Assembly: GCA_964035545.1 (NCBI GenBank)
Contig: OZ037771.1
Coordinates: forward strand, 2,615,628-2,679,627
DNA from: Bugula neritina
Taxonomy: Eukaryota > Animalia > Bryozoa
DNA: 64,000 nucleotides
Reading direction: 5' to 3'
Shown piece by piece: positions 5,691 through 39,100 of this stretch. The translations under genes were made by a program, and so were the position numbers. How positions within the stretch are numbered: the stretch's first letter is position 1; each line of letters opens with the position of its first letter. Below the pieces are notes generated by a model, which saw nothing but the letters and a program-made list of their open reading frames with translations, was not told the DNA's origin and did not search any database.

Positions 5691-5799
5691 ATCTGTTACA
5701 TGGAGTTGTCACAGGGGGCTTTCCTAAACATTGCAGATACAATTGCTTATAGCAAAGAACAAAACTTAGAATATTTCACTCAGAATTTGTGTTACTAAT

Positions 5800-8700
5800 A
5801 GACCATGTAAAACTCAGCCAATCAGCGAAGTGTACCAGGTCAATGTCTTACCATTGTAACTGATATAAAATTCTGCAAGTTCAATTGCAAAATGCATGCT
5901 TCTAAAAGCTAGTTGTGCAACTTTTTTTTCATGCATTATTTAATTTCATATCTTGAATTGATGACTCTTGAAATGATTTTTTAAAATGTCTAAATTAAGT
6001 GTTTATAAAACGCAATTAAAAATTGCATGTCTAGAAAAATGACCTGGTACACTTTTGCAACTTAAGGCCAATTATTACATAACTGCCAGCTTAGTAGTTA
6101 TTTGTTGTTGCAGCTTGAATGGGTTATTGTTTAGCATTGGAAGCTTGCAGTAAACATCTGTGAATTTGGTACATGACTTTGATTGGCTGGTTTTTGAATG
6201 GCCCTTTAGTATATGCATCTGGATGGCTGGGTAGTGTAGACTCCGCCTACATCTAGCTAATGTACAGTAGCCAATCCACAGTAGTATTACAAAATTTCTG
6301 TTTAACAAATGAAATATTCTGGTCATTTGTTTTGTACTTTACAATAGTAAATATTCTATTCAACTATAATTTTATTGTATGTAAGCCATGGGAACTACTA
6401 AGAGGTTAAATCAACCACCCATGCTGGTAATATTGTTGCTCGCAGTAATAGCAAGTCCACACCATATAGATATACACATAAGCTATTATGTGCAGCTTAT
6501 GAATGCTGAAATGACCCCATTTCTTACTTTCAATTTGAAAAAAATTGTATTACATATTCTGCCACTTCTGCACCAAGAATTTGTTTTCCTTTTAAATTTT
6601 GAAAATAGTAGTCAGTTTCTGCAGCAGTCAACTGCATCCACAATAAACAACGTAAGTTTTCAAATAAACTATAAATATATGAAATATTAGTGTGGAAACA
6701 ATGTAATTTAGTTCTTGCTATGATGAAGAATTACAAGAATATTATATTATAGAAGCTAGATATAGATTTATATAAAATGGCGCAGGTAAAAATAACACAT
6801 TTTTACTTCAAATTCTAAATTTCATCAGTCACCAATGGTGGCTGTAGATTACAGAGAGCATAGCAGACTATCATAATCATAAGGATGGTCAGCCCACTGA
6901 GCAAAATCCAACTCCAACCTTTCATTTGGGTTACCAACGCACTAAAGCATATAATGTAAGACGAACAAAAAACAGTGGTTTTAATGAAACATGTGGAGGA
7001 AGCGAACAGAAAACGTTATCAACAGAGTCAGCTGATATAGAGCAACAGAACTCATCTGACAGCCATCCTCATAGTCAGACTTCATCAGAAGTAACTGAGT
7101 TACCAGAATCATCAACTACTCAGAAAAAAAGATCTGCACATTCTATTGATAGACGAAAATCAAAAGTTGGAAGAAAAGGCTCAAAAAGATCCACGTTTAA
7201 ACAAAAAGCAACTATTGAAAAAGTAAAAGTTTTTAAAACTTTCACCACTACAGATGAGCAAACTAAATTCTATACTGGAATACCTACACGTTCTTTATAC
7301 TATTTTTTAGCAAGGTGAAAATTATGATTTTCTAATTGCAAAGATAGACTATATGGTTTATTACAAATAAACAATGCAAGTCTCACTATGCTAAAATTTC
7401 TACATTGAATAAATTTGATGTGTAGTAAAACTGTCATTTTAATTAAATTTGTTGCAGTGTGAGTACATCATTCATACATTTTTTATTAAAGATGTTGTTT
7501 TATGTAAGATATTCATAAATACCACAGTGGTCATCTGTATGCTTTGACTTATTTAGTTTAGGGTTTTATTTAAACAAGCAGCAGTATTTTATTTGTGGAC
7601 AAATTGACTCACTTTCTCTAGGAAAAGTAAATTGTTTTGACTTAAATTTTCCTTGGTTATTTTAAAGCTTATCAAAAGTGGCCTCCTAATCAAATTTTTA
7701 GCTGAAACTAACTCAGTGTTTAAAACTAAAATGGTTTACACTTGTTACTAGTTTCACTTATTCACAAATATTATTAAATGCTATTCTAGAAATAATATGG
7801 GTTTGAATTAGTTATAGTATAATTATAAAATGAAGTAATAATTGTTTGTCCACAGTATTTGTTTAAACTCATAACTTCATTCAAAGCATGTATTCATACA
7901 ACTAGCTTACCATGTACTGTTACAGTATTATGTAACACATGTTGACACACATTACATTCTGTTTGGATGGTGATATATTGGGTCAAGCCTTCAGCTAGCA
8001 GTTCTTGAACTTCATAGTTGTTGCAAAATATAACTGAAGCTACTTACCAGAGGGTAAAAACTGCTGAATGAATACAAACTAAGCACAAAATTTATTTAGC
8101 ACATACATTATAATTTGAATTATAATTTAATTTTCATTCTTTATTTTCTATATTTAGATTTATATGTCCGAAGATGAAAGTTCTTATTCTCCAAAAAAAA
8201 TTAACAGGACAAGATAGACTTTTATTGGCTTTGATGAAGCTGCGTCAAGGTTTACAGTTTCAAATACTTGCTGGCCTTTTTTATATCTCTAGATTGCTAG
8301 CAAGCAAAACCTTCCAAAACACATTAGATATTTTAGCAAGAGAACTGAACAATCTAATAGTTTTTCCAACAAGAGAGAAGCTGAACATCCCTCTGAGCTT
8401 TCAAAGCCAATATGCTACCATATATTTGTAGTTTATTTGAAAGCTTACGTTGTGGATGTTGACTGCTATAGAAACTGACTACTATTTTCAAAATTTAAAA
8501 GGAAAACAAGTTCCTGGTGCAGAAGTGGCAGAATATGTAATACAATTTTTTTCAAGTTGAAAGTAAGAAATGGGGTCATTTCAGCATTCATAAGCTGCAC
8601 ATACTAGCTTATGTGTATATCTATACGGTGTGGACTTGCTATTACTGCGAGCAACAATATTACCAGCATGGGTGGTTGATTTAACCTCTTAGTAGTTCCC

Positions 8701-9290
8701 ATGGCTTACATACAATAAAATTATAGTTAAATAGAATATTTACTATTGTAAAGTACAAAACAAATGACCAGAATATTTCATTTGTTAAACAGAAATTTTG
8801 TAATACTACTGTGGATTGGCTACTGTACATTAGCTAGATGTAGGCGGAGTCCACACTACCTAGCCATCCAGATGCATATACTAAAGGGCCATTCAAAAAC
8901 CAGCCAATCAAAGTCATGTACCAAATTCACAGATGTTTACTGCAAGCTTCCAATGCTAAACAATAACTCATTCAAGCTGCAACAACAAATAACTACTAAG
9001 CTGGCAGTTATGTAATAATTGGCCTTAAGTTGCAAAAGTGTACCAGGTCATTTTTCTAGACATGCAATTTTTAATTGCGTTTTATAAACACTTAATTTAG
9101 ACATTTTAAAAAATCATTTCAAGAGTCATCAATTTAAGATATGAAATTAAATAATGCATGAAAAAAAAGTTGCACAACTAGCTTTTAGAAGCATGCATTT
9201 TGCAATTGAACTTGCAGAATTTTATATCAGTTACAATGGTAAGACATTGACCTGGTACACTTCGCTGATTGGCTGAGTTTTACATGGTCT
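5800..9290 (+). mobile_element. ISL2EU/PHIS (Harbinger-related) DNA transposon derivative with ~880-bp inverted arms; DDE domain missing
   Basis: Arms 5800-6681 and 8419-9290 are near-identical reverse complements (the same 83-aa ORF appears on both strands). Ends are AGACC...GGTCT flanked by AT/AT. The interior has THAP-like and HTH_Tnp_4-like remnants. Confidence 0.8.
6488..8431 (+). pseudogene. Truncated THAP + HTH transposase gene (intron 7315-8157)
   Basis: CAAYEC*N at ~6490; DGQPTEQNPTPTFHLGY (THAP C-terminal type) at ~6885-6935; TDEQTKFYTGIP; then, after a GT-AG intron, KKLTGQDRLLLALMKLRQGLQFQILAGLFYIS...LIVFPTRE...PLSF (HTH of DDE-4 transposases), cut off by the right arm. Confidence 0.7.
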
Positions 9291-12200
9291 ATTCTAAATA
9301 ATAGCTCAACTATAAACAAACCCATTATATGCCAGCTAACTAATTCATTAGTTTCATACCAAATTCCAAAATGTTACATAATCAACCAAATGCTAAATTT
9401 AATAACTCATTGTTGCTATAATAACAAGGACAGAATATATTGTCCGTTGTACCAGCAACAGCTGCAGCTATAAGCAGCCCAGTAAGCCTTGAGGAATATT
9501 TTCAAACGCATAATTTTCAACAGCGCCGGCCACGATTAAATTTTAAAGTATTAATAAATTCTATGCTCAATATATGCAAAATTTGCTACAAATATTTTTA
9601 GAAACATGCAACGCGCTTGAACTTGAAACAATTTATTTAATTTATTATGGTGAGATATACCAGCGATGCCATTCTACTTAGACGGTTTTCACTTATACCA
9701 TATTTGTAAATTTTAGCGTAATATATGTATTTTATACTATTATTTAGCACATAATAGAAAGCAAGAAGCCACCAGCAAGCCATTTACAGTAACAATGCTT
9801 CTATAAGAAGCCATCTTGCACAAACCTTAAACCTAAAGGTAAAAGAGAGACAAGATATAATAAGAAAAAGTTGCAATATAGCAGTACGTGATATACCAAG
9901 AAACGCATTTGTGTATTTGATTCTGTTATTCTGAATAAAATAAACTGTAGCTAAACTAGTATTGAGTCAAAGCAAATAGCTGGCTTGGTAGCTTGTTTCA
10001 TGTTTAGCAGTAAATGCAACAGTTATATTTGCATATTACTATATATATTGTACCAAAATAAAAAATCGACTAACTGGGATGAAACCGTTTTCCATACTCA
10101 GTGCATCTATATGATGGGTTTGTTCTAACCGCTATTGTTCAAATTTTATCTATCAGTTGGTGAAAATATAGGCAATGTGAGATAAATTCACTAGTTTATG
10201 TAAAAACTGATTTATTGAGAAAATTTGATGTAATATATTTTTATTTGTAAAACCTAAAAGTAAAATGTACAATGGATAAATGTCATTCATGTATATTAAC
10301 TTTGTGTGTGGTATGTTACAGACCAGTATTTGCCTATCACCCCATCTGGGGAACATGATACAGGTGTTGTTATTAAAGCACTGCAAACAAAGGCATTCTT
10401 TCTTGAAATTAGTAGTTGGCTGGTGAAAGTAAACATAAGCATTTGTAGCTTTCATGAACCCAAAACCCATCTTTCTAAGAGTTTTATTTACTTCTAAAGT
10501 TGTTTGTCCCTGTATAGGCAAACACTCTCATTGAAGATTTTTAATGTTGCTCTGAGAAAAAAGGATGTCAAAGGAAATATTACTTCACAAGCTTCAACTA
10601 CTATAGTATAAAGAATAAGAATAAGCACTTCATAAAAATTTTAACTTACAAGTTGCAAAGTGTTTTTATTTAAAAAACATAACACTTCATACTTCATAAA
10701 TTGATAATATATTTCTTTGGGGTTTTTTAGAAGATATGCCAAGAGACATAAAAATATATTGCAAATGCTAGTGCTGACCAACCTTGTTTAGAAACCTAAA
10801 ACTTTTAGTCAACCAAACAAATTTAATCAAAATGTAGAAATCACTTTTCACATCATAAATGACGTATTTCTTGCTTTAAATTTGTAGTCTAAGATTATTT
10901 TCACAAAAGCTCTTTAGATGTTTTACACGTTTCACAGGAAAATGTCAATTATAAAGTGGCTATGCTCTAATAACAGTTATGACCATCTGTAAAAGCTGTG
11001 CTTGCTTCCAATACAATAGTTAGTTCATTGAAATATAACTGGAGAGGCAACAACTGAAGCTATTAAAATATTTTATTTTGTAGCTTGCTCTATTTATCCT
11101 ACAGTTTAGAAATAAAGTACTTGGTTCCCACCATTTAGCATTGTACTCTTTAAATAGTTCAGGGTACAAATGTCAAAGCATTTTAGCTGGTACACAAAAT
11201 ATTTCAATAAAATACTTTATAACAGTTTTATTCTATTGAATATTGACTAGTCACCCTTAAAGCAAATTATAGCCTATCCACGTTGCCAGCCAATAGGTTC
11301 CACGCTAATGTACTAGAAATAGAACTTATCAGCAAAATATTAATAAATAACTATTAAATTTGGGCTTTCAGTTGCTCAGATAAATTAAAATTACAATTGT
11401 CAATCAACATAAAACTAAAATATAGTAGCTAGTCTTTTAAAGTGGCCTACAGCAAGAAGTAGTTATTTTTACCGGTCTATGACAAAACATAGGAAATATC
11501 TATCCTGTCAAATAGTATCTGAGTAGTTGTAAAATTTGTTTGAAATACTGGTATTATGCACAGCATAATATAAATATAATCAAAGTATGCCAGCAAATGA
11601 GACTTATAGTTTACTCTGTTACTACTGAACACTGTAGTAGTATTCACACAATTCACACTGCACTATTGCTATAAGTAGCTCAGTTAGATATGTAAGCTAG
11701 TATAATATATCTATTAACTTCAGTATAGTTATCCATATCTATTGTCTCATGCAAAAACTTTTTTATGAAGTTTAATACTTCTAGTGTAATAGAATATAGT
11801 AATGATGTCACTTAGCTCTTCTCCATTTAGAGCTATAGATGATTATATACTAGATTCATCCCCTTTTCATTGGTAGGAAAGCTTCTAATCTTTATTCTGG
11901 TGCATGCGCTTTCAACACTGAATAAAAATTTATTGTCTTCTGGTGTTTATAAGGAAAACTCGTGTCTAGTTGCAGACTATTTCCAGCTGTTAAACCTATT
12001 TTTCAATTTGGTACCTTTATAATGTATATATATATATAGCTATATAACTGTAGATTGATTGCTAAATAGCTGATATGCTATAATAGCTATAATAGCTAAT
12101 TATCTAATTATCTAAGTATCCGGAATAATAGTTCACATTTCACAGAATTGCTCATGGCAAAAACAGTAATATGTTAATAATAAACATTATTTTAATGAAT

Positions 12201-16683: not shown

Positions 16684-19600
16684 TTAGTGCCGATTAGTAA
16701 GTTTGATGTGTATTCCATTAAGTGGTTGAAGTATAAGTGCTGCTCGTAGACCAAGTTCTTCTCTTGTCTGTGTTGACTCAATGTTGAAGTTCAGTAATAA
16801 AGTACCAACTACTATCATCAACTCCATCAACGCAAACTTCTGACCTAAAATATGAAATTATTCCTGAATAATTTATTCTATGTACTGTTGTGATTTTTTC
16901 GGTGGTGTGTCAGCTTGCTGGTTTGATTTAAACAAATAAATTTTAGCATAAGAACTTATTTCTCAACAAATGCGCCAAAAACTGACAAATGAGAACGTCA
17001 TTAAGTTTAAATTTCTCATTAAATATTTTCAAAAGAAGTGTCACAGTTTTAAAATCTGCAAAGGGAAAAATATAAGCAGACAATCAACAAAAATCAATTT
17101 AATAGAGCATGCAGTCTTCAGTGAATGATGAAGAATATAACATGCATAAAAACTACTTAAGAGTCTAAAATTTAGCGCTTGTGATACCAACAGCCTACAT
17201 AATGTACCTATACAGTTTCTTGGTCCTGCACTGAATGGTATGTATGCAAATGGATCTCGTCTAACATTTGAGTTTTCTTCAACACTTGACTGCTGTAAAT
17301 CTGCATTTATATCAGAGTTCAGCTGATCAAATCTATTAGGATTGAACTTCTCTGGGTCTGGAAACTGCTCAGGATCTTGGTGGAGGGCCATTATTAGCAT
17401 GCCAACTTGTGTTCCTTTGGGAACCACATATTCACCTGTGTAAATAGCATAAAATTAAAATCTTTAAATTTTAACACATTGCTTAAAGTTTTTAACAAAT
17501 GTTAGCACCCAATCTAACTATTTGTACAATTATGAGTCAAATACTCAGTGGTAGATTGTATTAATTCGCCAATATGAAAATGATAAGTAAAATATGAGCA
17601 TAATTTAAATATTTGCTGATTTATAAATGGAGAAAATAAGATATTTTACCGAAAGCTGTGTCTTCTTCCAATTGTCTCCCAATCAGAGGAACTGGAGGAA
17701 GAAGTCTCATTGATTCTTTGATACAACATTCCAAGTACTTCAACTTAGGGAGGTCATCCATTGTAATATCTTTCAAAGGGTTGCCTAATGCGATAACAAA
17801 CATAATCAAATTTTATTTGCAGTAAATAATCATTAAGCTAGGCTACAGAAATAAGCATCATGTAGCTATTGTTACTCAAAGTGTTTAATGAAATACTACA
17901 GTAACTAGCTGAACATGAAATTATTTAGAAACAACTGGTTCTCCCCGGACAGCTATACATTAAATAGTTAATGGGTTAACTTTTTAGTGAGTTTTATGCT
18001 ATTTTCAAAACCATTTCTTCAGTACGCTTGTAGTTGGTAATTATGATTGCTTGAGAAAGCAATTTTCAGTTCCATTATTTGATTGACACAGCTAATTGTA
18101 GTATTATATACTTCTGTACCTGAGGAAAGATAATTTGAAAAGTGTAAAAGCAATTCCTCAAGTTCCTATATAGTTGATCTTGAGCAAAATTTTCCACATT
18201 TTACATGCAGATAAGTTCCCTATTAGCTTACTGCAGAAATGTTCATGCTTTCCTGTCTGAAGGTATTTGTTAGACAAAGCTTTATTCTATAAATTTGTTT
18301 AACCAACTAAATATGTTTCTAAATATCTAATGAATACAAACCAATAGCTTCGTCCAGCTCCTGTTGACACCTTTTCTGCTCTTCTAAGTTTTTTCCAAGA
18401 AGATAGATTGCAAAGAAGATTCCAGATGACGTGGTGTCATGGCCCTGGAAAAAAAGTCAGAACAGTTAGGATTTCATGTACATGCTTAGTCGTTATCCAG
18501 CTCACTAAATTCTTCTTGTTTATATTTATACAGACGCCTGTTTATACAGTTCTTTTATACATTTCTCAGAATTTATGCTATTTGTGCACTGCAGTAAACA
18601 TAGAGGTTTCAATGCATCAATGTAAAGAAACCCTATAAGGCTGCACATAAAGAGCTTTTTAGTTTGTTACATTATCTTAGCGTTAGGAGGCTTTGTGAGA
18701 CCTCAGGAGATGACTAGGGAGTTGGTATCAAGAAACCACTTGAGCTTTGTTCTATTTTTAGCATATTGAAAATACTCATAGAAGGCAGCATTACAATTTG
18801 ATTCAAATAAAGTTGCTTTATTTTAGTCTGATACCTGTCAACAGTCCTACCTCAAACATAAAAGTGTCAACTTCCTCCCTGATATCAGAGTCAGTTAGAG
18901 GAAGTCCATCTTCATCTGTACAGTTTAGTAAGAGATCCAGGAAAGGCTGGTGCTTCTTTTGTTCATAATCTGTCCCAGAATCTCTCATTTCTCGCCTCTT
19001 TTTAATTACCTGAAGTAAAATGCTAGCAAATTAACACACATTCCCCTCCTCCGCAGTTTAAGTTCCAGCAAGTAATATCTGAAATAAGGAATTGTTTACT
19101 TGCTATAATTAACACAGCTGAATTGAACTACCAACTAAGTAAAATTATAAGACTTACAATGGTGAAATCTTAACAATCACAAAAAATAATGTTAAATCAG
19201 ATTCACAGAAAGGAGAGAGACTGTGAAAGGGACCACTAAAATGATTAATTTGTATTAATTGTCTTTGTTTTCTTTTATTCAATGCATAAAGTCATCTTGC
19301 TGATGTAATAAGTACCTCAATTGTAAAATCTTGTGCCAAAGAGATAGCTTTGTTGACTTTCTTCCCCACTGCTGTTCTGTCATAAATAAAGTCAAATCTA
19401 CCAATAGGTGACCTGGATCTATCATCTATTCCTTCCTTGATAATGCTGAGAGCTTCAACGTATTCGCTGTTCTCTCCATGGAGGGCATTTACTTCTACTC
19501 CCATTGCCGTGTCTAAATACAAATTTGCGTATTTGAGACTAGGGTTACCTTTTTTATTTTTTGAACTGAAGATAAAATGAAGTTGATATGAGAGGCAATA

Positions 19601-21515
19601 AATTGATAAGATGGCAACAAAAGTAAAGATAACTGAATGTCAGCAATGGATATTTTTGATGAGCATATAACATATCGTATAGAGCTTCTGTGTTTAAGCA
19701 GATACAATAATTTTTTTGTATAAACTCGTAATGACTTATATTATAAGCCTGTATTTAAGCATGTATATAATGTAATGATTGTATAAGCATTTATAAGCTT
19801 TTGGAAGGTTATATAAGCTGCAACTTTCTTCAGAGAAAATAAAGATGACTAGCGACATTATTATAATGTAAGTTTTAGGTTCAATTGCGAAATAAAGTTG
19901 ACCTTGAACTTACCACATATGATGTCTAGAGTGCTACGTGTTACATCATCTAAGATATCATAAGGTTGACCAGTGTCACTAGCATCTCTCATTAACTTGT
20001 CTCTCAACTCTTTAGCGTGACTGTTTATCATTCCATTAAACGTCTTCAAAATGTTGAAATGAAAACTTGGTGTGAGCATCTTCCTTCTGCTCCTCCATTT
20101 TGAACCGTAACTACAATTTTTATCAAAGTTATAGTAACTGCAACTGTCTTTAATTAAAATAAATAACCACAAGCCACATAAATTTGAAATCATTTCTCAG
20201 TGATGCTAAACTTCCTTTTGTATCAGTTTTTTTGACATTACAGAACTTGAAACACAGCTTAGCCGTTTACTCTCAACAAACTTAGAAGTTATCTATCTCT
20301 GCTGGCAGAGAAATTTTACTAACCTGGTTAATAGGCCTCGGCCAAGCCATGATAACAATGGGTCATACCGATTAGACTTCAGAATATTAACATTGCTGCT
20401 GCACAGTTCCTTCAAATGCTCTGCACCATAAATCAAAACCCAGGATTCCTCAAGAATCATCAGACGATACAGACCTTGTTTCCTCCTTTCAGCTGCCCAT
20501 TGCAGAAACTGATGGAAAGCAGCTGCAAAAAGGCTTTAAAGTAGCTTAAGTCAGCATATGTTTGGCTCAAGTATGACAGTAAGTTAGTACTCATAATTTA
20601 AGATATTTGCCTAAAAGTTTGCATGAAAATATAAGCACAGGCTCATATATGTAATGAAGATCCCAAATTACAGTAGTTTCAAAGCATCTATTACTTATCA
20701 AAGGTTTATATTATGGAAAGTTTATAAGAGAACATAAACTTCTCATATTTTATTATACTCATAAATGCAATTTGTATTTTATTATAAATGAGATCAATTT
20801 TTATGTGTGCCTGTGTGTGTGCCTGTGTGTGTGTGCCTGTGTGTGTGTGCCTGTGTGTGTGCCTGTGTGTGTGCTTGTGTGTGTGCCTGTGTGTGTGCCT
20901 GTGTGTGTGCCTGTGTGTGTGCCTGTGTGTGTGCCTGTGTGTGCGTGCGTGTGCGTGTACGAAAAGAAATAATGCAACATCATCATGATACAAGGCTATG
21001 CCCAGTATTATCACAACAAGCAAACTTTCTAATATCCCACACCAGACTATATGCACTTACTATCTAGACTGTTACTGAACTAACATGTACTTACTTTCTA
21101 GATTATGAAGCAACATAACTTACTATCTATACTGCAGATATACGATATGACTATAAACTAACAAATATTTGTCAGCCAAACAGGATCACCACAGTATAGG
21201 TGGAAAAAACCTAGGATGTACTTATTTTCCAATTTGCAAACCAATATATTAGGCTATATTATAGCTATATTAGGTAATTAGCTTTTCAGCTCTATGTGTA
21301 GCCTACTTACTTCCAGCATCAGTAGAAAGAGTTAAAAGATCTCCAACAAGAGGCCATGGCTGAATGCAGGGTAACTTCCTCAGTAGTTTACGGTCTCTGC
21401 TGTTATTCCATAGCAAGTACCAGATCAGTGAAATGATTCCAACTACAGAAAGTAGCACCAAGGTTGAAGCAGAGTTGATGTGATCAACTGTAGACAATGC
21501 AATTTCTCTCAGCAT
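16684..21515 (-). CDS. CYP4: Cytochrome P450, clan 4 / CYP4 family (CYP-A), 9 exons, 527 aa
   Basis: Exons 21515-21311, 20522-20324, 20110-19914, 19512-19316, 19009-18851, 18444-18342, 17784-17650, 17435-17208, 16844-16684; all GT-AG, 1584 nt open. Motifs: N-terminal TM anchor, [27 protein letters not shown] (CYP4 signature), [21 protein letters not shown]. Confidence 0.95.
20804..20958. repeat. Compound (TG)n microsatellite, unit gcctgtgtgtgt, in CYP-A intron 1
   Basis: Direct reading; explains the HT/CV repeat ORFs. Confidence 0.95.
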
Positions 21516-22000
21516 TTCCTATCCCTGGTGCTACTGGATACTAGTTACTAATAGCATTAAGTGTCAGTACTAGCTGTTGATAGTATGATTGCTGTAGCAG
21601 CTGTCAGTGCCCTAAATGTTGCGGTAACACATCAAGTGTAACACTGCTTCTAATTACATAACGATTGTCCATACATCCGAAAATATGCACATGCAGTCAC
21701 TGTTATCAAGCGTTAACAACCTACGTTAGACAATAAGTATCCAATAAGCTGGTGGTTGATAAGTAACCTAATATTGAATGCATATAGTTATTTGCTTTCT
21801 TTATATTTTATTGCAGTTTTATTAAAAAATCCCTGACTTACTTTTTATGCAGCATTAAAATATTCATATTATTATTGTATAAGGATAGTTTGACAGTTTT
21901 TATTTTTATTAGCCTCACGTGTATTCAAACAAAGGCACTTGAAGATGACTTCATATTTTAACCGCATTTTCTATTTTATGAGTATAAAGTTAGCTGCTTG

Positions 22001-22013: not shown

Positions 22014-22210
22014 TCCAATTCATTTTTGTGCACAGTTGTTTTTGTTACCAGCAGTTGCTCTTATGCAGTCAGCCACATTAGAGAGTAGCACTGTCAACAT
22101 TATAATTAGTCTGGTGGCCTGAATTTCTTCACTGTATATTAAAACGTAGACTGGATTCTTGATCAGCTACAGCTCTGTAGGGCACACCTTCACCTTGGTT
22201 CATTATATAT

Positions 22211-22515
22211 TGTTATGTTTTCCAGATTTAGGGTTGATGTGCCACCAAGAGAGTCTATTTATCACTAGAGAAACTTCACCGTGTTAAGTCGAGTAGATAT
22301 CGTTATATTTTAATACAAGAATACATAATAAAATCTAATGTACAACAGTAATGATACGCACATCTATTTAATTTTCAGCACTATCCTCAACTGAGCTAGT
22401 AGCGCGAAGCTGCTACTATTACTCATAAACAGCCTAGCTAATTGGCTAATACATTGTTCCGGGTCAATACGCAACCTTGCGTATTGTGTTGCTGGTAGCT
22501 CCACGAGCCACCACA
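22211..22515 (-). repeat. 3' LTR (305 bp)
   Basis: Identical by eye to 29346-29650. Preceded on the minus strand by the purine-rich tract GGAGGGAGCAG (22526-22516). Confidence 0.97.
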
Positions 22516-22782
22516 CTGCTCCCTCCAGCAGAAAGCCCTCTTTCTGATAAAAATATAATTCACATAAAAAAAACGTATACTTCGTTGTGGAGAGAGAGAA
22601 CAGTATAAAAGTATATACAAAAAAACAACTGATAAAATATACAGGTATACATATAAAACGTGCACAATGCGTAATATGTACGAGAAAATCCTATTTACAT
22701 GTAGAGTACGTGCCACCATAATGGTAGGGAATGCCACAGAGAGGTAGGGGAAGAGTAGTATGGAGTTGGAGATAGACTCATG

Positions 22783-23856
22783 TTAACTGCGGGCCGCCCG
22801 CTTCATGCGTTTAATAGACTCCTGTAAATATTTGAGTTCACTGGATGCAGCCTGTACCCGTGGGGCCAGCCTATACACTTCTTGCTCCAAGTCGTGTGCC
22901 CTAGCTTCTACTTCACGTAGGTTGCGGGCCCAGGGGGACGAGCGAGAGGAAGGCGGCTGTCTGTGTCTTTTCCGCTCTGAGGATGGAAGGGGAGGAGGGA
23001 GTGTATATGCATTTGTGTCCACCCTCTGTAGTATGACACAAGGAAAGGTATGCGGTATGCGTAGAGAACCGTGAGGTGGAGAGTTAGTAGACTGTGTAGG
23101 GTTATCCGCGGCTCCAGAGATGATGGGTCGCGGGGAAGGGAAGCCTTGCTCCAGGCGAGATAGCCGAGCTGAGTCAGTGATGAGTGGTTTGATGGCGTTG
23201 AGAAAGGCAGGATAGGATGATTCGTCTACTTCATAGACATGCCCTTGATAACACTGCATAGTACGTTGGTGCCGCAGTAGGTAATCACGATTGTAGCTAT
23301 ATTCTCCGCAAGGGCAGAAAGTGGTGATGTAGTGTTGCGGCAAGGGTACTTTCAGTCTGCGGTGGGTTGTGAATCGCTGCTGACAGAGGTTGCATTCACG
23401 ATTACTCTCACCTCCTTGATGGGTCCTAATCTCTCTCTCTGTGGCAGGGGTAATCCAGTTGGAGGTTGCTTCCAACTGGGGTGGCAGTTGCCTGGTTGTA
23501 GAAGTTGTTGGGGCCGGCTCTGGGTCCCACGCCATCTTTAGAGAAGGCATGCCCGGAGAGACGGGCGCGAGTGTGTCTACAAAAGTAGAATTATTGTTAG
23601 ATCGCGGTGGATCTTTACAACATAATTCTAGTGACTGTCGACCGTTGCTAGCCTGAGAGTCACAGCTTTTGGAATGCACTCGAGGAACCGATGAATCATG
23701 TGTGGACTGACCAAGAACAGTGTCTAGCTCCAGGTCTAACAGACCGTCGGCCATTACAGTGTCTTCATCGTCATTCATATGAAACGTGGTTCCCAGTAAT
23801 TCTGATTCAATCTGCTGAATTAGTTCAGAATTTACTGGCATCGAGCCCGTTTCCAT
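22783..23856 (-). CDS. Retrotransposon accessory ORF3: putative zinc-finger/coiled-coil nuclear protein (not Env), 357 aa
   Basis: ATG is 17 nt after the pol stop. Contains CNLC-x12-(P)-x3-H and CPC-x12-H-x5-C fingers, PCVIL, ERKRHR and a C-terminal heptad repeat. No signal peptide or TM stretch. Confidence 0.8.
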   Translation of the reverse strand: METGSMPVNSELIQQIESELLGTTFHMNDDEDTVMADGLLDLELDTVLGQSTHDSSVPRVHSKSCDSQASNGRQSLELCCKDPPRSNNNSTFVDTLAPVSPGMPSLKMAWDPEPAPTTSTTRQLPPQLEATSNWITPATEREIRTHQGGESNRECNLCQQRFTTHRRLKVPLPQHYITTFCPCGEYSYNRDYLLRHQRTMQCYQGHVYEVDESSYPAFLNAIKPLITDSARLSRLEQGFPSPRPIISGAADNPTQSTNSPPHGSLRIPHTFPCVILQRVDTNAYTLPPPLPSSERKRHRQPPSSRSSPWARNLREVEARAHDLEQEVYRLAPRVQAASSELKYLQESIKRMKRAARS

Positions 23857-23873
23857 GAATAGGAATACAAGAC

Positions 23874-25796
23874 TTATACTGGCTTACCTGGGAACTCGGT
23901 ATTAATGTCCATACTCAACGTTCTTGGTAAGATTGGAGCTGGTTGTGAGATACGTCTGCCTTTAGCGATGTCAGCATAAGAAAAGGCTGAGCATCGTTTC
24001 TGAGGCACGAGGTCGGAACTATTTGCTTTACGCGCATTAATTCCACCCACTATTCCGCCCTCGCAAAAGTTGATATTTGCGTGGGGTTCACAACTCCAAC
24101 ATTTTATCGTACGGTTTTCCCTTAGACTTTCATGTGCGCCGCTTCTAATGCAGTCACATACGAAGTCTTTTAAATATGCGGGGGGTTGCCTCGTACGCTG
24201 TCCCCTTTCTAGGGGGGGTGACACGCTTGCCGGTTCGTTAGTAGGGGCCTCTAATGGCGTCTCTACTTCACCGTCAGCGGTCACCTCTTCTTGTTCTCCG
24301 GATGGAGCCCCTCCCTCCGTGGGGGTTTGCACTTCCGGAACCGGCTCGGTTTCTGGAAGTGATGGAATTAGACTTGGCGGTGGCGGACACGCTTCTGTTG
24401 ACAAAAGCTGCCGCTCCTCTCTCACCAAGTTTTCTTCCCGCGGTATGACCACTTCGTATTCAGGTCCATGCCGCCGTCGCCCGCGCGTTGTTGTCTGCCT
24501 CCTGGGCTCTAACAACGGGGGGGCTTCTCCCACTCCGTCGGGGCTAGCCCAATACGGTTTCAAGCGAGACTCATTCTGGATAGACACCTGTCCTGAGCGC
24601 TCAATCTTGTACGTATGGTTGGGCATAGCTTCGACGACCACGTAGGGCCCTACGAACTTAGGCTTCAGCTTATCAGCCTGTCCACGGCGCCTACGGTAAT
24701 TGACCATCCACACCTTATCTCCCCTTTGATAGAGAGGTGGTTCATCGGAATCTTCGTGCCGCACCTTCCACTGCTGTTGGCGCAGTATCTCGTGTGCGGC
24801 CTTCATCCGTTCCACTAGTTCACTGGCATACTCGTGAACCGAGTTGTCTTGCTCTGGAACGTGATAGGTGAGATGGTCAGGGACACGAGTCTCTCTCCCG
24901 AGCATCAAGAGGTTTGGGGTCTCACCAGTACTGGTGTGTGGGGTGCTACGGTATGCACGCATGACTTGCGGCAACACCGTATCCCATTCCTCTTGACCTC
25001 GTCCAAGGAGGAGACTCCGGAGTGCATCACCCAGCATCCGGTTGTTGCGCTCCACCACCCCGTTACCTTGAGGGTGGTAGGGGGTGGTCCTGCTCTGATT
25101 TACTCCCCAGAGGTGACAAAGGTCGCTCATCAGTTGAGACTGGAATTGAGCGCCTTGATCAGAGTGTATCTGTTCAGGGAGTCCAAAATAACAGAATACA
25201 TGTTGGTCTAGTGCCCTGGCCACTGTTGGGGCTGACGCATCTGGGATAGCCAGAGCATCCGCCCACCTAGTAAAGTGGTCGGTTAGTACTAGGATCCAAT
25301 TATTGCCTCTGGGGGTCAGGGGCATGGGTCCGACCAGGTCTACAGCGACTACTTGCCAGGGCCTACCAGCATATAGCCTCCGCCGTCCTGCTTCACCAGG
25401 GGGGCGGCTATGCTTACTGGCCTGGCAGATCTCACACTGTTTGACTCTGAGCCGGACGTCACGCTCCATTTGCGGCCAATACCACCGGAGTCGTAATTTG
25501 GATATCACTCTCTTGACCCCTGCGTGGGCCTGTTTGTGAGTATCCCAAATCAACTCACGGCGGATGGCCGTGGGACAGACTACCCTCTTCCTTTCCGGGT
25601 GTCTGCCGCTGGCAGCTAGAGAGATGGTTAGTAACCCATCCTGCCCGATCCGCAGCGAGTCCCAACGCTGACAGTATAGCCGGAACTCGGCGCATCCCTG
25701 TCGTATGCGTTCCTCGCTGGGTCGTCGCCCTTCCCTTTTGGCCCGGTATATGTCTGCCACGACTCCAGGCAGCTCTTCTTGGAGCTTCTTCAGCTC
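23874..25796 (-). CDS. pol: Pol integrase part (same frame as RT, separated by one TGA)
   Basis: HHCC (HKQAH...CEIC), DDE (VAVDLVGP, HSDQGAQF, NGVVERNN), GPY/F (KPKFVGPY) and RTRQPPAYLKDFV tail. Confidence 0.95.
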   Translation of the reverse strand, partial: ELKKLQEELPGVVADIYRAKREGRRPSEERIRQGCAEFRLYCQRWDSLRIGQDGLLTISLAASGRHPERKRVVCPTAIRRELIWDTHKQAHAGVKRVISKLRLRWYWPQMERDVRLRVKQCEICQASKHSRPPGEAGRRRLYAGRPWQVVAVDLVGPMPLTPRGNNWILVLTDHFTRWADALAIPDASAPTVARALDQHVFCYFGLPEQIHSDQGAQFQSQLMSDLCHLWGVNQSRTTPYHPQGNGVVERNNRMLGDALRSLLLGRGQEEWDTVLPQVMRAYRSTPHTSTGETPNLLMLGRETRVPDHLTYHVPEQDNSVHEYASELVERMKAAHEILRQQQWKVRHEDSDEPPLYQRGDKVWMVNYRRRRGQADKLKPKFVGPYVVVEAMPNHTYKIERSGQVSIQNESRLKPYWASPDGVGEAPPLLEPRRQTTTRGRRRHGPEYEVVIPREENLVREERQLLSTEACPPPPSLIPSLPETEPVPEVQTPTEGGAPSGEQEEVTADGEVETPLEAPTNEPASVSPPLERGQRTRQPPAYLKDFVCDCIRSGAHESLRENRTIKCWSCEPHANINFCEGGIVGGINARKANSSDLVPQKRCSAFSYADIAKGRRISQPAPILPRTLSMDINTEFPGKPV

Positions 25797-28148
25797 TCAA
25801 ACATTACCGGCCAGTACAGGGTTGGCGCGGAGGTTTTGTACATCCTCCGGGGACTCATCAACTCTTTGCCTGAGTTGACCTTGGTCCCAGTCAAACGGTG
25901 CTCCGTGGTGAGCCAGCGTCTCCAACTCGCATCGCGGGGGACCTCCATCCCTCCTCTCGATGTTGAGACACTGTTTGCAACCTCCGTCAGGTCGGCGACT
26001 CAACCCATCCGCATTGCTGTGTCTCTTGCCCGGTCGATGTTCGATCCGGTATGAGAATTCAGCTAGGATTTCGAGCCACCGGGCGACCTGACTAGAGGGC
26101 TCTGCTCTCTTGCACAACCAGATCAGCGAGGCATGATCCGTACGCAGCCGGAACTTCCTGCCGTATAGGTATGGTCTGAAGTGCTTCACTGACTTGATTA
26201 CTGCCAGCAGCTCCTTGCGGGTAGTGCAGTAGTTTCGTTCAGCGGGTGAGAGAGACTTGCTGTAGTAGGCTACTACTACCTCTCGGCCTTCCTGCACTTG
26301 TGACAGCACAGCGCCAACATTTTGGTCACTGGCATCCGTGTCGAGGATGTACTCCAGAGTGGGGTCTGGGTAGGCCAAGATGGGCGCCGTTAGTAGGCAG
26401 CCCTTGAGGCGGTCGAACGCTCCTTGTTCGACTGGGGTCCACTGCCACGTCACTCCCTTTGCGGTGAGCCGGTTTAACGGCTGTGCTATGCCCGCAAAGT
26501 CTGGTATGTATTGCCTGTAATACCCTACCAGCCCCAAGAAAGCCCGGAGTCCGGTCAAGTCTTGGGGGGTGACCCAGTCTTCTACTACCCGTACCTTTTC
26601 GGGATCCGTTGCCACGCCGTTTCGACCGACAACGTGCCCCAGGTACTTGACCTCCGGCTGCAATAGAGCGCACTTGGAAGGTTTGAGCTTAAGACCGGCA
26701 CCTCGGAGTCTCTCGAAAACCTCCTGCAGACGACTGACATGTGTCTCGAAGTCCGGAGAGATTACGATGACATCATCGAGGTAGACCAGCAGTGTCTTCC
26801 AATGGAGTCCGCTAAGGACTTGTTCCATCAGCCTCTGGAAGGTGGCTGGGGCGGAGGTTAACCCGAAGGGTAGCACCTTCCACTTCCACAAACCGTCCCG
26901 TGTGATAAACGCCGCTTTCTCTTGGGCGTCGGGACTCAGAGGAACCTGCCAATAGCCGCTTAGCAAGTTTAACGTACTGAAGTACTTGCTGCCGGCTAGG
27001 GCGTCCAATGACTCGTCAATACGAGGTAGAGGGTAAGCGTCCTGTATGGTTACGCTATTGAGTTTGCGGTAATCCACACAGAACCGCCAACTGCCGTCTT
27101 TCTTCCGGACCAGTACGACTGGCGAGCTCCACGCACTATGGGCGGGCTCTATCAGTCCCCGGTCCAGAAGATCCCGTACTTGTCGGCTAACTTCCTTCTC
27201 TTTTTCCGGCCCCAGCCTGCGTGTGGGCTGCCGGACAGGGACTGTCCCTGCAGTCAGCGGTATTTCGTGTCTGACAACTCCAGTCAGCCCCACGTCATGA
27301 TCTCCGCTACTGAACACATCACCGTAGTCGCGTAGCAACTTCGCCATGGTTTGGCGTTCCTTGTTGCTCGCGCAGCGGCCACTGGCTGTTTCGTATAACT
27401 CCCGGAGATGTGTTGGGACTGCCCCTCGTCCCTGAATAGGGTGTCGAGGGGGTGCCTCTGTCGCGTCACCCAGCGACGGGCCCACGTCCTCTTCCTGGAC
27501 GGAGTGGAACCGGCCCAGCATTGACCCCGCTGGGAGCTCAATGGGCTCGGTAAAGGGGTTGACACACTGCACTAAGACCTCCCCTCGCTCAGTTAGTCTG
27601 TTTAAACTACTGGCGAGTTGGATCCTTTCGTGCGCGCCTTCAACGACCCCGAGCCTGGCTATCCGGTTGCTGTTCACTCGGCAGTGGATGGTAGCTCTGG
27701 AGCGTCCGGGCACGGTGCAGTTTCGAACTACCTGAACACCGCCCACCAGAGGACGCCCAAACTTATCCACACAGGCGAGTTCTCGCCCGCCCATCAACAC
27801 CACCGACTTACTAAAGTCTATTCGGCACTGGTGTTGCTTCAAGAAGGGCATTCCGAGGATAGCATCTTCCTCCAGTTGGCCTATGACAAAGGTCTCCCGT
27901 ACAGCCTGGTCTCGGACACGCCCAGGGAGCTCGATAATACCATAAAAGGGAATACATGACCCGTCTGCCAGGGTGCCATGTTCCCCAGTATATGGTCGTA
28001 CTCTATCCCTGTCCCGGCGGGGCAGTGCCTCAAAGACTCTACGACTGAGAAGATTGGTAGTACAACCGGAGTCGAGCAGGAAAGTGACGGCGTTGCCGGC
28101 CACCTTTCCGGGTAGGAAATAGCTCTCTCCATGTGGTTGTACTTTCAC
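25797..28148 (-). CDS. pol: Pol: aspartic protease, reverse transcriptase, RNase H
   Basis: FLLDSGC protease; SSPVVLVRKKDG, RFCVDYRKLN, PFGL, YLDD; RNase H LDTDAS...KELLA...TDH...NADGLSR. The first RT catalytic Asp appears as Asn (FSTLNL). Confidence 0.95.
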   Translation of the reverse strand: MKVQPHGESYFLPGKVAGNAVTFLLDSGCTTNLLSRRVFEALPRRDRDRVRPYTGEHGTLADGSCIPFYGIIELPGRVRDQAVRETFVIGQLEEDAILGMPFLKQHQCRIDFSKSVVLMGGRELACVDKFGRPLVGGVQVVRNCTVPGRSRATIHCRVNSNRIARLGVVEGAHERIQLASSLNRLTERGEVLVQCVNPFTEPIELPAGSMLGRFHSVQEEDVGPSLGDATEAPPRHPIQGRGAVPTHLRELYETASGRCASNKERQTMAKLLRDYGDVFSSGDHDVGLTGVVRHEIPLTAGTVPVRQPTRRLGPEKEKEVSRQVRDLLDRGLIEPAHSAWSSPVVLVRKKDGSWRFCVDYRKLNSVTIQDAYPLPRIDESLDALAGSKYFSTLNLLSGYWQVPLSPDAQEKAAFITRDGLWKWKVLPFGLTSAPATFQRLMEQVLSGLHWKTLLVYLDDVIVISPDFETHVSRLQEVFERLRGAGLKLKPSKCALLQPEVKYLGHVVGRNGVATDPEKVRVVEDWVTPQDLTGLRAFLGLVGYYRQYIPDFAGIAQPLNRLTAKGVTWQWTPVEQGAFDRLKGCLLTAPILAYPDPTLEYILDTDASDQNVGAVLSQVQEGREVVVAYYSKSLSPAERNYCTTRKELLAVIKSVKHFRPYLYGRKFRLRTDHASLIWLCKRAEPSSQVARWLEILAEFSYRIEHRPGKRHSNADGLSRRPDGGCKQCLNIERRDGGPPRCELETLAHHGAPFDWDQGQLRQRVDESPEDVQNLRANPVLAGNV

Positions 28149-28452
28149 CCCCCCGCATGTGCTGTCCTGGATTGCCAGGACGGCGGGGGTTTCACCCGTG
28201 GTTTACGGGGTTTCCGGCGGCGAGGTTGCTGCCGGCGGGGTTTGGGGCTCTCCACTGGGCCTTCTGGCTCCATTTCAGTGGCGGGCTCCTCTTCCCGAGG
28301 TAACCGGTGGAACCGGTTGCGAGTGGCAGGGAGAAGGTACTCGGCCGTTGTGCGGGCCTACTAGTCCTGCGTGGTACCTGCCACTCGGGGGGAGTGCGCC
28401 GTCGTGTCCGTACGGGCAGACGGCGGTGTTTCCCACCATACTCCTTTAGTTG

Positions 28453-28497
28453 CGGCCCGCGGGGAGGGAGAGCGTCCGCGGGCCGTGACAGTTTAAC
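28453..28497 (-). promoter_or_regulatory. Candidate -1 programmed ribosomal frameshift signal (G_UUA_AAC + 5-nt spacer + 10-bp GC stem)
   Basis: Minus strand reads GTTAAAC TGTCA CGGCCCGCGG (13-nt loop) CCGCGGGCCG. It is in the gag frame, and the -1 frame is open downstream. Confidence 0.7.
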
Positions 28498-28514
28498 GCC
28501 CCTTGGTATTGGGG

Positions 28515-29312
28515 TCATCCTTGCTGTCCATGGTCTCGACCAGCACTACTCCAGTTTGGCCCCGCAGGTGTTGAGGGCAACCGCAGGGCCTGACCGGGGC
28601 CAGCGCCAGCCAGAATTGTTACCAGCTGTCCCAGCATCTCTACCATGCGGTCCACTTCGGCTTCTAGCGGGGGAGCTTCGGGGCTTGTTGTAGCCCTGGC
28701 AGCGCTGACTCCAACTACTGGTGGGTTCCGTTGTGCTTGATGCATTTGGGTAGCCAACAGGTAAGCTTCTCCAGCCTTCAGGGCATCCTCTATTCTGGTT
28801 ATCCCTTTAGCTCGTAGTTGATGGTGTAAGCCCAGGTCGTTTAGTGACTGGACAAAGGCGTCATAGGTGTAACGCTCTTGGTGTTGTGCTGGCAGATCGC
28901 TGTATGCAATCTGCGCCAACTTCTTCACCGTCGCGGCATGTTCTTGCAGCGAGGTCCGCGGGGTGCGGCACAATCTCTCCAGCTTGGTCCTAGCGTCTAT
29001 TGCGGAGATGCCAAAACGGGCCCGCAGCGCAGCCAGTATCCCGTTTACGTCCGTTCCCACTCCGTACGGCTTGGCTTGTTCCGTCACCGCTCTCCGCAAT
29101 TGGATAAGGGCCACTCTATGCGGCCATTGAGCAACCTCCATTACCTCTCTAAATTCTTGTATAAATTGTTCGACATCTTCCGACCCAGTAAAGGTGGGAG
29201 CTTTCAAGCAATGTCTATAAGCTTCTTCTCCCTCACGATTTACAGGATTAACAGCATTTCTACGCTCACCTTCTACTGGGGGTGGTTGCATTCTAGCATT
29301 TTCAGTCTCCAT
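28515..29312 (-). CDS. gag: Gag (capsid-like), 265 aa, with degenerate zinc-knuckle region
   Basis: First ORF after the PBS; KAPTFTGSEDVEQFI...W...AL.ARFG retrotransposon-gag pattern. Confidence 0.9.
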   Translation of the reverse strand: METENARMQPPPVEGERRNAVNPVNREGEEAYRHCLKAPTFTGSEDVEQFIQEFREVMEVAQWPHRVALIQLRRAVTEQAKPYGVGTDVNGILAALRARFGISAIDARTKLERLCRTPRTSLQEHAATVKKLAQIAYSDLPAQHQERYTYDAFVQSLNDLGLHHQLRAKGITRIEDALKAGEAYLLATQMHQAQRNPPVVGVSAARATTSPEAPPLEAEVDRMVEMLGQLVTILAGAGPGQALRLPSTPAGPNWSSAGRDHGQQG

Positions 29313-29326
29313 CTTTGATGTACACT

Positions 29327-29344
29327 ATCCCACCGCTGCCACCA
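29327..29344 (-). promoter_or_regulatory. Primer-binding site complementary to the 3' end of tRNA-Leu
   Basis: Plus strand ATCCCACCGCTGCCACCA matches the 3' 18 nt of metazoan tRNA-Leu(AAG/TAG type) including CCA; 1 nt from the 5' LTR. Confidence 0.9.
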
Positions 29345-29345
29345 C

Positions 29346-29650
29346 TGTTATGTTTTCCAGATTTAGGGTTGATGTGCCACCAAGAGAGTCTATTTATCAC
29401 TAGAGAAACTTCACCGTGTTAAGTCGAGTAGATATCGTTATATTTTAATACAAGAATACATAATAAAATCTAATGTACAACAGTAATGATACGCACATCT
29501 ATTTAATTTTCAGCACTATCCTCAACTGAGCTAGTAGCGCGAAGCTGCTACTATTACTCATAAACAGCCTAGCTAATTGGCTAATACATTGTTCCGGGTC
29601 AATACGCAACCTTGCGTATTGTGTTGCTGGTAGCTCCACGAGCCACCACA
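29346..29650 (-). repeat. 5' LTR (305 bp)
   Basis: TG...CA termini; identical by eye to 22211-22515. Confidence 0.97.
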
Positions 29651-30792
29651 ATATTTAATATCTACTCTATCAACACAATCAAACATGTAAGTGTTACCTA
29701 CCATTTGTTAATTTTAGTTACATACCTATAAATGTATTTGTTTGAATTTGAGCTTTGGTCTGTAACTGTCAACAAACTTATTTCTTTGTATGTCAACATC
29801 TTTGTTACTATTTTGTGCGTTTCAGCTTACCAATTATTCTTGCCACACATTTATGATTTTAATTAATTTTGTCTTAGGTCACTATCAATATGATAATTTT
29901 GCTGAGTCTCTGGACAACTCATTTCTGTGTAAAAGGTTAAAATTGTGAGTAATAACATTTTATAATAATTGTGTAATTTCAATAGTGCATTCCCATTATC
30001 GTCAGTGTATTTTTTACATTTTTCACATTTAACTTTACGTACAATTTTCAATGTATTTTTGTTTCAACTCTCATTTGCATACAGATCTAATAATTTCTGT
30101 AAAGTTTCACAGGTTACGACTTCAAAGTACAAATAAACATCTGTGTCAATACCTCCATACCAGCACAATTATCTTAGCGATCATCTACCCACTGTTTCAG
30201 GGTTGTATGCTCAAATAATTTTGTTTGATATTTAAATGTGTTTAAACATGTATATTGAATTAGGATTCCCGATGACCTTCAAATATGCTCTGAAGTTCGT
30301 GGAATAGAAAACTAATAATAATTATTGCTTATCTTCATTGAAAACTATTTATAACAGCTGTAAGCCACAGCTTAACCACTGAGCTGGCTTGAAATTTAAA
30401 ACTTGAACTTTGCATAAAATATATTTCAAAACAAAATTATTTGAGCATATAACCCTCAAACAGTGTGTAGATAATCACTAAGATAATATACACGAATATT
30501 TTAATACTGCATAAAAAAAGGTGTGTCAAGCCTAGTGTTACGTTGTTATACAGTACACCCCTATAAACTGCTATTGTACTACTAAACTGTTCATGTCAGC
30601 TCTAAAGTAAGACAAAACTTGATCTATTCTAAAATTTACAGCAGATCATGCTGTAGTTGCACATTGTTACAAAGTGTATTGTAAAGCAACATGACCCTTT
30701 TCTTATTAGAAAAATATGTGATTACATTGTGCTAGCAAATAAATCAATTGTTAGTGGTTGGCAGGAGTGACTGAGTGTGGTTCCTTCTTCAA

Positions 30793-30806: not shown

Positions 30807-31047
30807 AGACCGCTGTTAATGAAGTCTGTGAAGTATCATAAACAAACACTCAGTACCACTTATCAGGTGATGTATTATTCCCTTTGCTGCTACTACCTAC
30901 TAGAGTCTATAGAGTCTAGAGTCTAGAGTCTAGACTAACATCTTATAGGCCACTGATAACTGCTATCACCAACCACACTATCAGCAGCTGGTATACTGAC
31001 ACTTCATGCTATCAGTAGCTAGTATCGAGTAGCACCAGGGATAGGAA

Positions 31048-39100
<8,053 letters not shown>

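Follow-up and report, generated by a model that had tools for sequence, protein, structure and literature searches.

A predicted two-finger protein encoded behind pol in a Ty3/gypsy retrotransposon of Bugula neritina, a candidate nuclear accessory factor

LTR retrotransposons are usually viewed as gag-pol or gag-pol-env elements reliant on host transcription factors, and few cases of element-encoded nuclear regulators are known (CERV and those of complex retroviruses). The retroviral proteins Tat, Tax, Rev, Rec, and foamy-virus Tas are products of 3′ accessory genes, small nuclear regulators that dock host factors by short motifs; to our knowledge, none of them is a tandem C2H2 protein. A different kind of transposon-encoded factor is VANC of the VANDAL plant DNA transposons, an anti-silencing protein that acts against DNA methylation.

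Among Gypsy-type elements, Cer1 of Caenorhabditis elegans encodes the nuclear accessory protein CERV, which acts on the element's own RNA and has a Cys-rich finger, a leucine zipper, and a basic nuclear localization signal; it is made from a spliced RNA that shares exons with gag, contains H, M, and G-protein-like domains and a C4-type loop, and has homologues restricted to nematodes (PMC10309623). Bdelloid rotifer LTR retrotransposons likewise carry an extra non-Env open reading frame (ORF) behind pol. The rotifer ORF3s are GDSL esterases, DEDDy exonucleases, and transmembrane (TM) or coiled-coil ORFs that evolve near neutrally within a genome (PMC5408684), and the word "zinc" occurs nowhere in the text of that paper. 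At the Pol C terminus, chromoviruses carry a chromodomain (PMC12440569) and MLV integrase carries a chromatin-directed, ET-binding tail (PMC11939847).

Here we analyze ORF3 of a Ty3/gypsy retrotransposon lying within a 64-kb window (the whole stretch of Bugula neritina DNA under study). As a putative nuclear accessory protein of a Gypsy-type element, it resembles CERV as described; it differs from CERV in its position behind pol, its C2H2-derived finger pair, its frequent fusion to integrase, and the absence of a G-like domain from its model. The fused members of its family occupy the position of the chromovirus and MLV tails with a different fold, and unlike those tails, the module can also stand alone as an ORF of its own, with an acidic helix and a coiled coil. 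The Retroviridae trans-regulators are not known to be related to ORF3 in sequence. VANC, to which ORF3 may be likened as a transposon-encoded, possibly DNA-binding counter-silencing factor, showed no similarity to it in Pfam and PDB searches.

The element and its third reading frame

The retrotransposon spans positions 22211-29650 on the minus strand in AT-rich host DNA. Its features, in the order of transcription, are as follows.

29346..29650, minus strand: 5′ LTR, 305 bp, TG...CA ends
29327..29344, minus strand: primer-binding site, 18 nt
28515..29312, minus strand: gag ORF, 265 aa, ending early at an in-frame stop (28515-28517)
25797..28202, minus strand: first part of pol, with protease and, from Pfam, reverse transcriptase (RT) and RNase H, ending at an in-frame stop (25797-25799)
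23874..25796, minus strand: second part of pol, with integrase (zinc-binding, core, and SH3-like domains; Pfam) and a disordered tail
22783..23856, minus strand: ORF3, 357 aa, open, in a reading frame different from that of pol
22516..22526, minus strand: polypurine tract, read from the sequence
22211..22515, minus strand: 3′ LTR, 305 bp
22207-22210 and 29651-29654: target-site duplication, 4 bp, ATAT

The order protease, RT, RNase H, integrase is that of Ty3/gypsy elements, and LTRs, primer-binding site, polypurine tract, and target-site duplication are all present. The same 18-nt primer-binding site, which we take to be of the tRNA-Leu type, is present in 3 of 18 related loci. No Pfam family was found above cutoff in the gag ORF, the position and layout of which match those in related loci. 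Pfam shows no chromodomain in this integrase or in any of 120 Pol proteins related to it. Between protease and RT, pol contains a stretch without an assigned domain that is similar in size to a dUTPase domain; the dUTPase domain (PF00692) was found in the clade Pol proteins P0296, P0316, and P0327. The two LTRs are 100% identical over the 300 nt compared, the remaining 5 nt and the ends having been read off the sequence, and the RT lacks its first catalytic Asp. With its identical LTRs, its stops in gag and pol, and its missing Asp, this copy is young but broken. Many related copies are present in run X1; runs X3 and X4 contained only small shares.

ORF3 starts 18 nt past the pol stop and ends about 270 nt short of the 3′ LTR. 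Its parts, all on the minus strand, are the following.

23713..23856, minus strand: residues 1-48, acidic, net charge −12, with a predicted amphipathic helix at residues 8-20
23122..23487, minus strand: core, residues 124-245, consisting of a Trp-helix, finger 1, finger 2, and a strand with helices
23394-23332, minus strand: finger 1 (C2H2), C155-H175
23316-23251, minus strand: finger 2 (C-x-C...H...C), C181-C202
23020..23043, minus strand: PCVILQRV, a PxVxL and V-x-L-x-R-hydrophobic motif, with PCVIL at 23043-23029
22960..22977, minus strand: ERKRHR basic patch, a predicted nuclear localization signal
22789..22932, minus strand: C-terminal coiled-coil helix, residues 309-356, within a predicted 49-residue helix (308-356)

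In the structure model, an ordered core and the helix at 308-356 are joined by disordered linkers. Residues 1-48 appear activation-domain-like in composition and predicted helicity, K296 of the basic patch is invariant in 18 sequences, and the heptad register is hydrophobic at 13 of 15 a/d positions. Neither a signal peptide nor a TM helix is present: the highest 19-residue hydropathy is 0.56 in this copy, and none of the 18 full-length members tested exceeds 0.96. The original prediction had described an intact 357-aa ORF between pol and the 3′ LTR with an acidic N terminus, PCVIL, ERKRHR, a heptad repeat, and no signal peptide or TM helix; all of this agrees with the sequence, coordinates included, and both the basic patch and the coiled coil proved to be conserved in the family. 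The word "intact" holds for ORF3 alone, as gag and pol are interrupted. The two finger-like motifs of that prediction are also in place, with ligands that are conserved in homologues, but in this copy Pro171 occupies the place of the first His ligand of finger 1. With one zinc ligand missing, the ORF3 protein of this copy may be impaired. The identity of the LTRs despite damage to gag, pol, and finger 1 suggests that a defective lineage was moved in trans. The one RNA run yielded low-depth contigs that cover part of ORF3 only, which is too little to show transcription; the 15 of its 67 rows listed contain no canonical spliced joint, an absence of no weight given that every row was a contig.

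A two-finger domain family in one gypsy clade

A first search retrieved 53 ORF3 homologues at E ≤ 0.01 (33 to 73% identity), and a profile search gave 305 representatives at E ≤ 0.001 (150 of them listed) and 125 at 1e-10; the named homologues are all bryozoan. Of the 51 homologues with a matching N terminus, 47 begin at the same or a neighboring Met; three others continue farther upstream, and the last one is truncated. These separate starts led us to reject the view that ORF3 of this copy is only pol sequence shifted out of frame; nor did the 12 of 19 rows listed show an indel at the junction.

The full finger 1 pattern C-x2-C-x12-H-x3-H is present in 45 of the 53 homologues and the finger 2 pattern C-x-C-x12-H-x5-C in 44. 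Across 39 diverse cores at 25 to 61% identity, six zinc ligands (four Cys and two His) are invariant or nearly so. Within the subfamily of this copy (18 sequences), mean pairwise identity is 0.71 in the N terminus, 0.66 in the core, 0.77 in the PxVxL stretch, and 0.62 in the coiled coil, compared with 0.37 to 0.61 in the linkers (0.45 and 0.37 in those flanking the PxVxL stretch). The 122-aa core was modeled from an alignment of 63 sequences with a pLDDT of 95.2 and a pTM of 0.86. Pfam contains no family that scores above cutoff for ORF3 of this copy (PF00096 reaches 13.4 bits against a cutoff of 25.2); PF00096 matches at E ≤ 0.01 in 4 of 33 family members, and nearly all members fall below Pfam cutoffs.

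Profile matches of the core are C2H2 DNA binders (best E, 3e-9), and the fingers overlay DNA-bound tandem C2H2 pairs weakly (Z 3.0 to 3.5, rmsd 2.5 to 2.9, 50 to 57 residues), the best overlay being Kaiso-DNA (Z 3.5, rmsd 2.7 over 57 residues). In its finger 1 pattern and two-finger geometry, ORF3 thus resembles tandem C2H2 factors such as ZBTB7A, Kaiso, CTCF, and SALL4. It differs from them in a C-x-C finger 2, a variable fourth ligand, and a five-residue interfinger linker that is hydrophobic, not of the TGEKP type, and shorter than the canonical one; additional N- and C-terminal helices are predicted to join the fingers into one compact domain. Foldseek gave no hit at E ≤ 0.001 with either the full model or the core, and a wide fold search returned generic long helices only for the full model and nothing at Z ≥ 5 for the core. 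The flanking helices and strand found no match in the structure searches, and matches in the ESM Atlas were unnamed clusters and C2H2 families only. The wide fold search establishes neither a new nor a different fold. Judged from sequence and predicted structure, the core is apparently an undescribed domain family with a compact two-finger fold and helices.

Throughout the family, finger 1 has a basic helix, and 70 of 83 cores scored contain the S-R-D of finger 2. The families that share these helix residues must have different LTRs, which would suit an unchanging host or structural ligand better than one specific to an LTR; the conservation suggests a fixed ligand rather than fast-changing LTR sequence.

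ORF3-baited scans of viral contigs and metagenome contigs gave no match. A scan baited with integrase motifs, in which ORF3 was not used as bait, yielded 18 loci, 7 of which have the core behind the integrase in one of two forms.

L005, L007, L008, L015: core in a separate ORF
L003, L010, L012: core fused to Pol

At L009 (1125-7628), a 2168-aa Pol ends in a diverged two-finger module with an acidic helix that the core profile missed. The decayed locus L016 gave no core match, and the other nine end early or are broken. Among long related Pol proteins (the best 120 of 323), the core is fused to Pol in 34; in 54 short-tailed ones, a separate ORF3, loss, and truncation look alike. In an integrase tree of 113 rows (FastTree), a single clade of 97 rows (support 99) contains every carrier, and none is found among the 16 outgroup rows; the fused state switches no fewer than 15 times along starred branches. 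This unnamed domain family marks an entire gypsy clade, within which it flips between free and integrase-fused forms.

In the fused forms, 200 to 700 disordered residues lie between integrase and core. In 10 of 12 fused cases (baseline, 0.51), the acidic helix has a Met in front of it, in a test that left out 12 of the 34 fused proteins, and the enrichment of the acidic helix itself is marginal (12 of 22; shuffle mean 6.5, maximum 12). In the L005 family, a distant relative with a separate ORF rather than the subfamily of this copy, the dN/dS values of ORF3 are 0.10, 0.23, 0.40, 0.09, 0.10, and 0.33 (six non-independent pairs among four copies); those of integrase in the same pairs are 0.36 to 0.57, with one near-identical pair above 1. 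Between L009 and L013, a broken copy, dN/dS is near 1 over 247 linker codons. ORF3 is under purifying selection in one related family, and its module is a conserved non-Env unit that is tied to one gypsy clade and separable from Pol.

For the original prediction, these results mean that its reading is partly supported. The frame has been kept open in relatives, the dN/dS of the related family is well below 1, and the proposal that the protein is not an Env stands; no clear match to an Env, a fusogen, or a described accessory family emerged from Pfam, Foldseek, or the fold search. Its suspicion that the architecture had not been described for gypsy elements agrees with the open-access main texts searched. 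There the family appears undescribed, and the accessible parts of a metazoan env survey (PMC13524379), of annelid and mollusc surveys (PMC8556966 and PMC6238403), and of the Troyka paper (PMC12440569) mention no zinc-finger ORF of this kind. The prediction missed the frequent fusion to integrase and the ARS2-type and SPT6-type motifs of relatives.

Short motifs and the proposed role

Outside the core, about 15 patterns were compared with local shuffles, using one representative per cluster, in a set of 49 clusters and then in 25 new ones. The motifs were picked after the sequences had been viewed, and a clean out-of-sample test applies only to the ARS2-type and VxLxR patterns. For [YF][RK]IP, the heptads, and [IV]xxRLG, the 25 representatives were hand-listed, and the two counts shared with the earlier analysis of these clusters agree.

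The pattern [DE][DE]GE[ILV] (EEGEL), which PMC9402713 gives for ARS2-binding effectors, occurs in 7 of 49 clusters (shuffle value 0.29; 0 of 1000 shuffles) and in 5 of 25 new ones (0.33; 0 of 500). It was never found reversed and is absent from 73 non-fused tails; the Pol bodies, 147,333 residues in all, contain it once. A second pattern, [YF][RK]IP (YRIPK), which came to notice only when both sets were already known, turns up in 4 of the 49 clusters and 3 of the 25 (shuffles 0.14 and 0.18); YKIPK/YRIPK is the motif of Set2/SETD2 that binds SPT6, a ligand of its death-like domain (PMC12851032). A minority of clusters carry either motif, and both are absent from the subfamily of this copy and its 85-member cluster; this copy has the acidic helix and the PxVxL/VxLxR motif without the ARS2-type and SPT6-type ones. 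C-terminal heptads occur in 10 of 25 clusters (shuffle value 0.87), LxxLL is weakly enriched (11 of 49, 6 of 200 shuffles; 8 of 25, 8 of 200), and DPR and TQT motifs are not enriched. The pattern [IV]xxRLG, also noticed post hoc, was found in 4 of 25 clusters (0.17 expected from shuffles) and 2 of 49 (0.27), and no literature source was found for it; it recurs in the fused Pol tails P0238, P0242, P0248, and P0252 and in P0193 and P0200.

The reading that we favor, and to which we give an even chance, is that ORF3 is a nuclear accessory protein that acts in trans to help its element be transcribed and to influence the fate of the RNA, in the manner of Tat, Tas, or CERV. By prediction, nucleic acid or chromatin would be the ligand of the two-finger core and the coiled coil would oligomerize ORF3, while host transcription factors would be docked through short motifs in the disordered arms. 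ORF3 would recruit or block host transcription or RNA-sorting factors, and more full-length element RNA would result, by activation, by elongation, or by escape from early termination and decay. Sequence features lead us to infer where ORF3 acts (the nucleus), what its fingers bind, which partners it has (ARS2, SPT6, HP1, or BET proteins), and in which direction it works. The ARS2-type and SPT6-type motifs of relatives would point to elongation and RNA fate and not to HP1 alone. A more far-reaching version, which we regard as possible but doubtful, is that an invertebrate gypsy clade replaced env by a Tat-like two-finger nuclear factor that mimics SPT6, ARS2, and HP1/BET docking motifs, so that the element would ride Pol II elongation and shield its transcript from early termination, decay, and silencing, and that hosts domesticated the module at least twice. 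If function follows these motifs, ORF3 would be a transposon countermeasure against co-transcriptional RNA surveillance with directly testable partners.

The other readings of ORF3 are not fully exclusive of one another or of the helper reading. We consider it unlikely that the module is an integration-targeting tether which, at the place of a chromodomain, steers insertion through a BET ET-domain or HP1 contact, either fused or in trans. The fusions behind integrase, in both the 34 Pol proteins and loci L003, L010, and L012, would suit such a tether. So would the motif [VI]x[LVIC]x[RK][LIVC], which is found in 10 of 49 and 11 of 25 clusters (shuffles 3.6 and 3.8), in 2 of 60 non-fused tails, and as PCVILQRV in this copy. 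Its form hydrophobic-R/K-V-x-L-x-R, present in 6 of 49 and 6 of 25 clusters (1.3 to 1.4 shuffled), closely resembles the ET-binding consensus K-phi-K-phi as well as LKIRL, a peptide of MLV integrase (PMC11939847). V-x-L-x-R-hydrophobic would fit an HP1 chromoshadow ligand and a BET ET-domain ligand equally well. The insertion of this copy between the first exons of a cytochrome P450 pair, one case only, would also be in keeping with targeting. However, ORF3 of this subfamily is separate with its own conserved Met, the fusion has been repeatedly gained and lost, long disordered linkers separate core from integrase where it exists, and the relatives' ARS2-type and SPT6-type motifs have to do with elongation and nascent RNA.

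It is quite unlikely, in our judgment, that ORF3 is an HP1-directed anti-silencing factor that, in the manner of VANC, would bind element DNA and displace or sequester HP1 via PxVxL. Within the subfamily, PxVxL is the best conserved stretch outside the fingers. Of the 62 members that extend at least 45 residues beyond the core, 45 retain it, 9 have LxVx[LVIM] instead, and 8 have neither. LxVxL and CxVxL are listed as HP1-binding variants in PMC7465937, and L, C, or P stands at the first PxVxL position in 14 of 27 VxLxR motif instances. Family-wide, however, PxVxL is not enriched (found in 1 of the 49 clusters and 3 of the 25, no more often than in shuffles) and [PLC]xVx[LVM] is at chance (12 of 25 versus 11.5), so the PxVxL of the original prediction holds as a subfamily feature but not as a family one. 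Further, an HP1 ligand could equally recruit repression.

Such recruitment would be the essence of a self-limiting repressor, which would bring HP1 or ARS2-linked decay to its own element and limit copy number or cell-type activity. ARS2-binding motifs are used by the decay and termination adaptors ZFC3H1, ZC3H4, and ZC3H18 (PMC9402713), and PxVxL proteins are mostly silencing factors (PMC7465937); host genes have kept the domain, as a use in defense would predict. We nevertheless hold this reading to be decidedly improbable, as the acidic amphipathic N terminus and the SPT6-type motif would better fit activation and the family, with 6325 contigs in a single run, is abundant there.

Host genes with the core and the surroundings of the element

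Bryozoan hosts have kept this apparently new zinc-finger domain as genes. The core is found in host-annotated genes of Watersipora subatra (P0198/P0056 and P0149) and B. neritina (P0202 and P0205), with two cores each in P0198 and P0205. An N-terminal domain of about 50 aa is common to P0149, P0202, and P0205 and occurs in no other protein compared. The host-annotated copies sit at three or four places among element-borne sequences, and their grouping as one clade is rejected with a p-AU of 0.029 (a quick tree of 38 of 91 rows with one long branch omitted). Repeated domestication, at least two events, is likely the simpler reading of a tree that is unrooted and does not fix the donor.

These genes might also suggest that a host zinc-finger gene was captured as a passenger without a role in the element. 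We consider this highly improbable, given that the core has held its place after integrase throughout a deep clade, at about 30% identity, that dN/dS in the L005 family is well below 1, and that the host-annotated copies are scattered among element-borne ones. A divergent Env or a small fusogen, the latter of a kind described in Drosophila (PMC11952523), would have only the position behind pol in its favor and can practically be dismissed, since 18 of 18 full-length members lack a signal peptide and a TM segment, a zinc-finger core with disorder and one helix offers no F-type or gB-type fusion ectodomain, and Pfam shows no Env family at E ≤ 1.

Around the element, the window contains the following features.

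16684-21569, minus strand, and 30994-39100, plus strand: two cytochrome P450 paralogues in head-to-head orientation, duplicated as an inverted pair and almost identical in their first exons
33479-35347, minus strand: non-LTR-type RT ORF, 622 aa, within an intron of the plus-strand P450 gene
5797-9293: inverted repeat arms of 836 nt that are 99% complementary and flank 1.8 kb of core sequence containing fragments that resemble transposase

The gypsy element lies in the shared upstream region of the P450 pair, roughly 0.7 kb from one start and 1.4 kb from the other, and the inverted-repeat unit at 5797-9293 is possibly a young DNA transposon.
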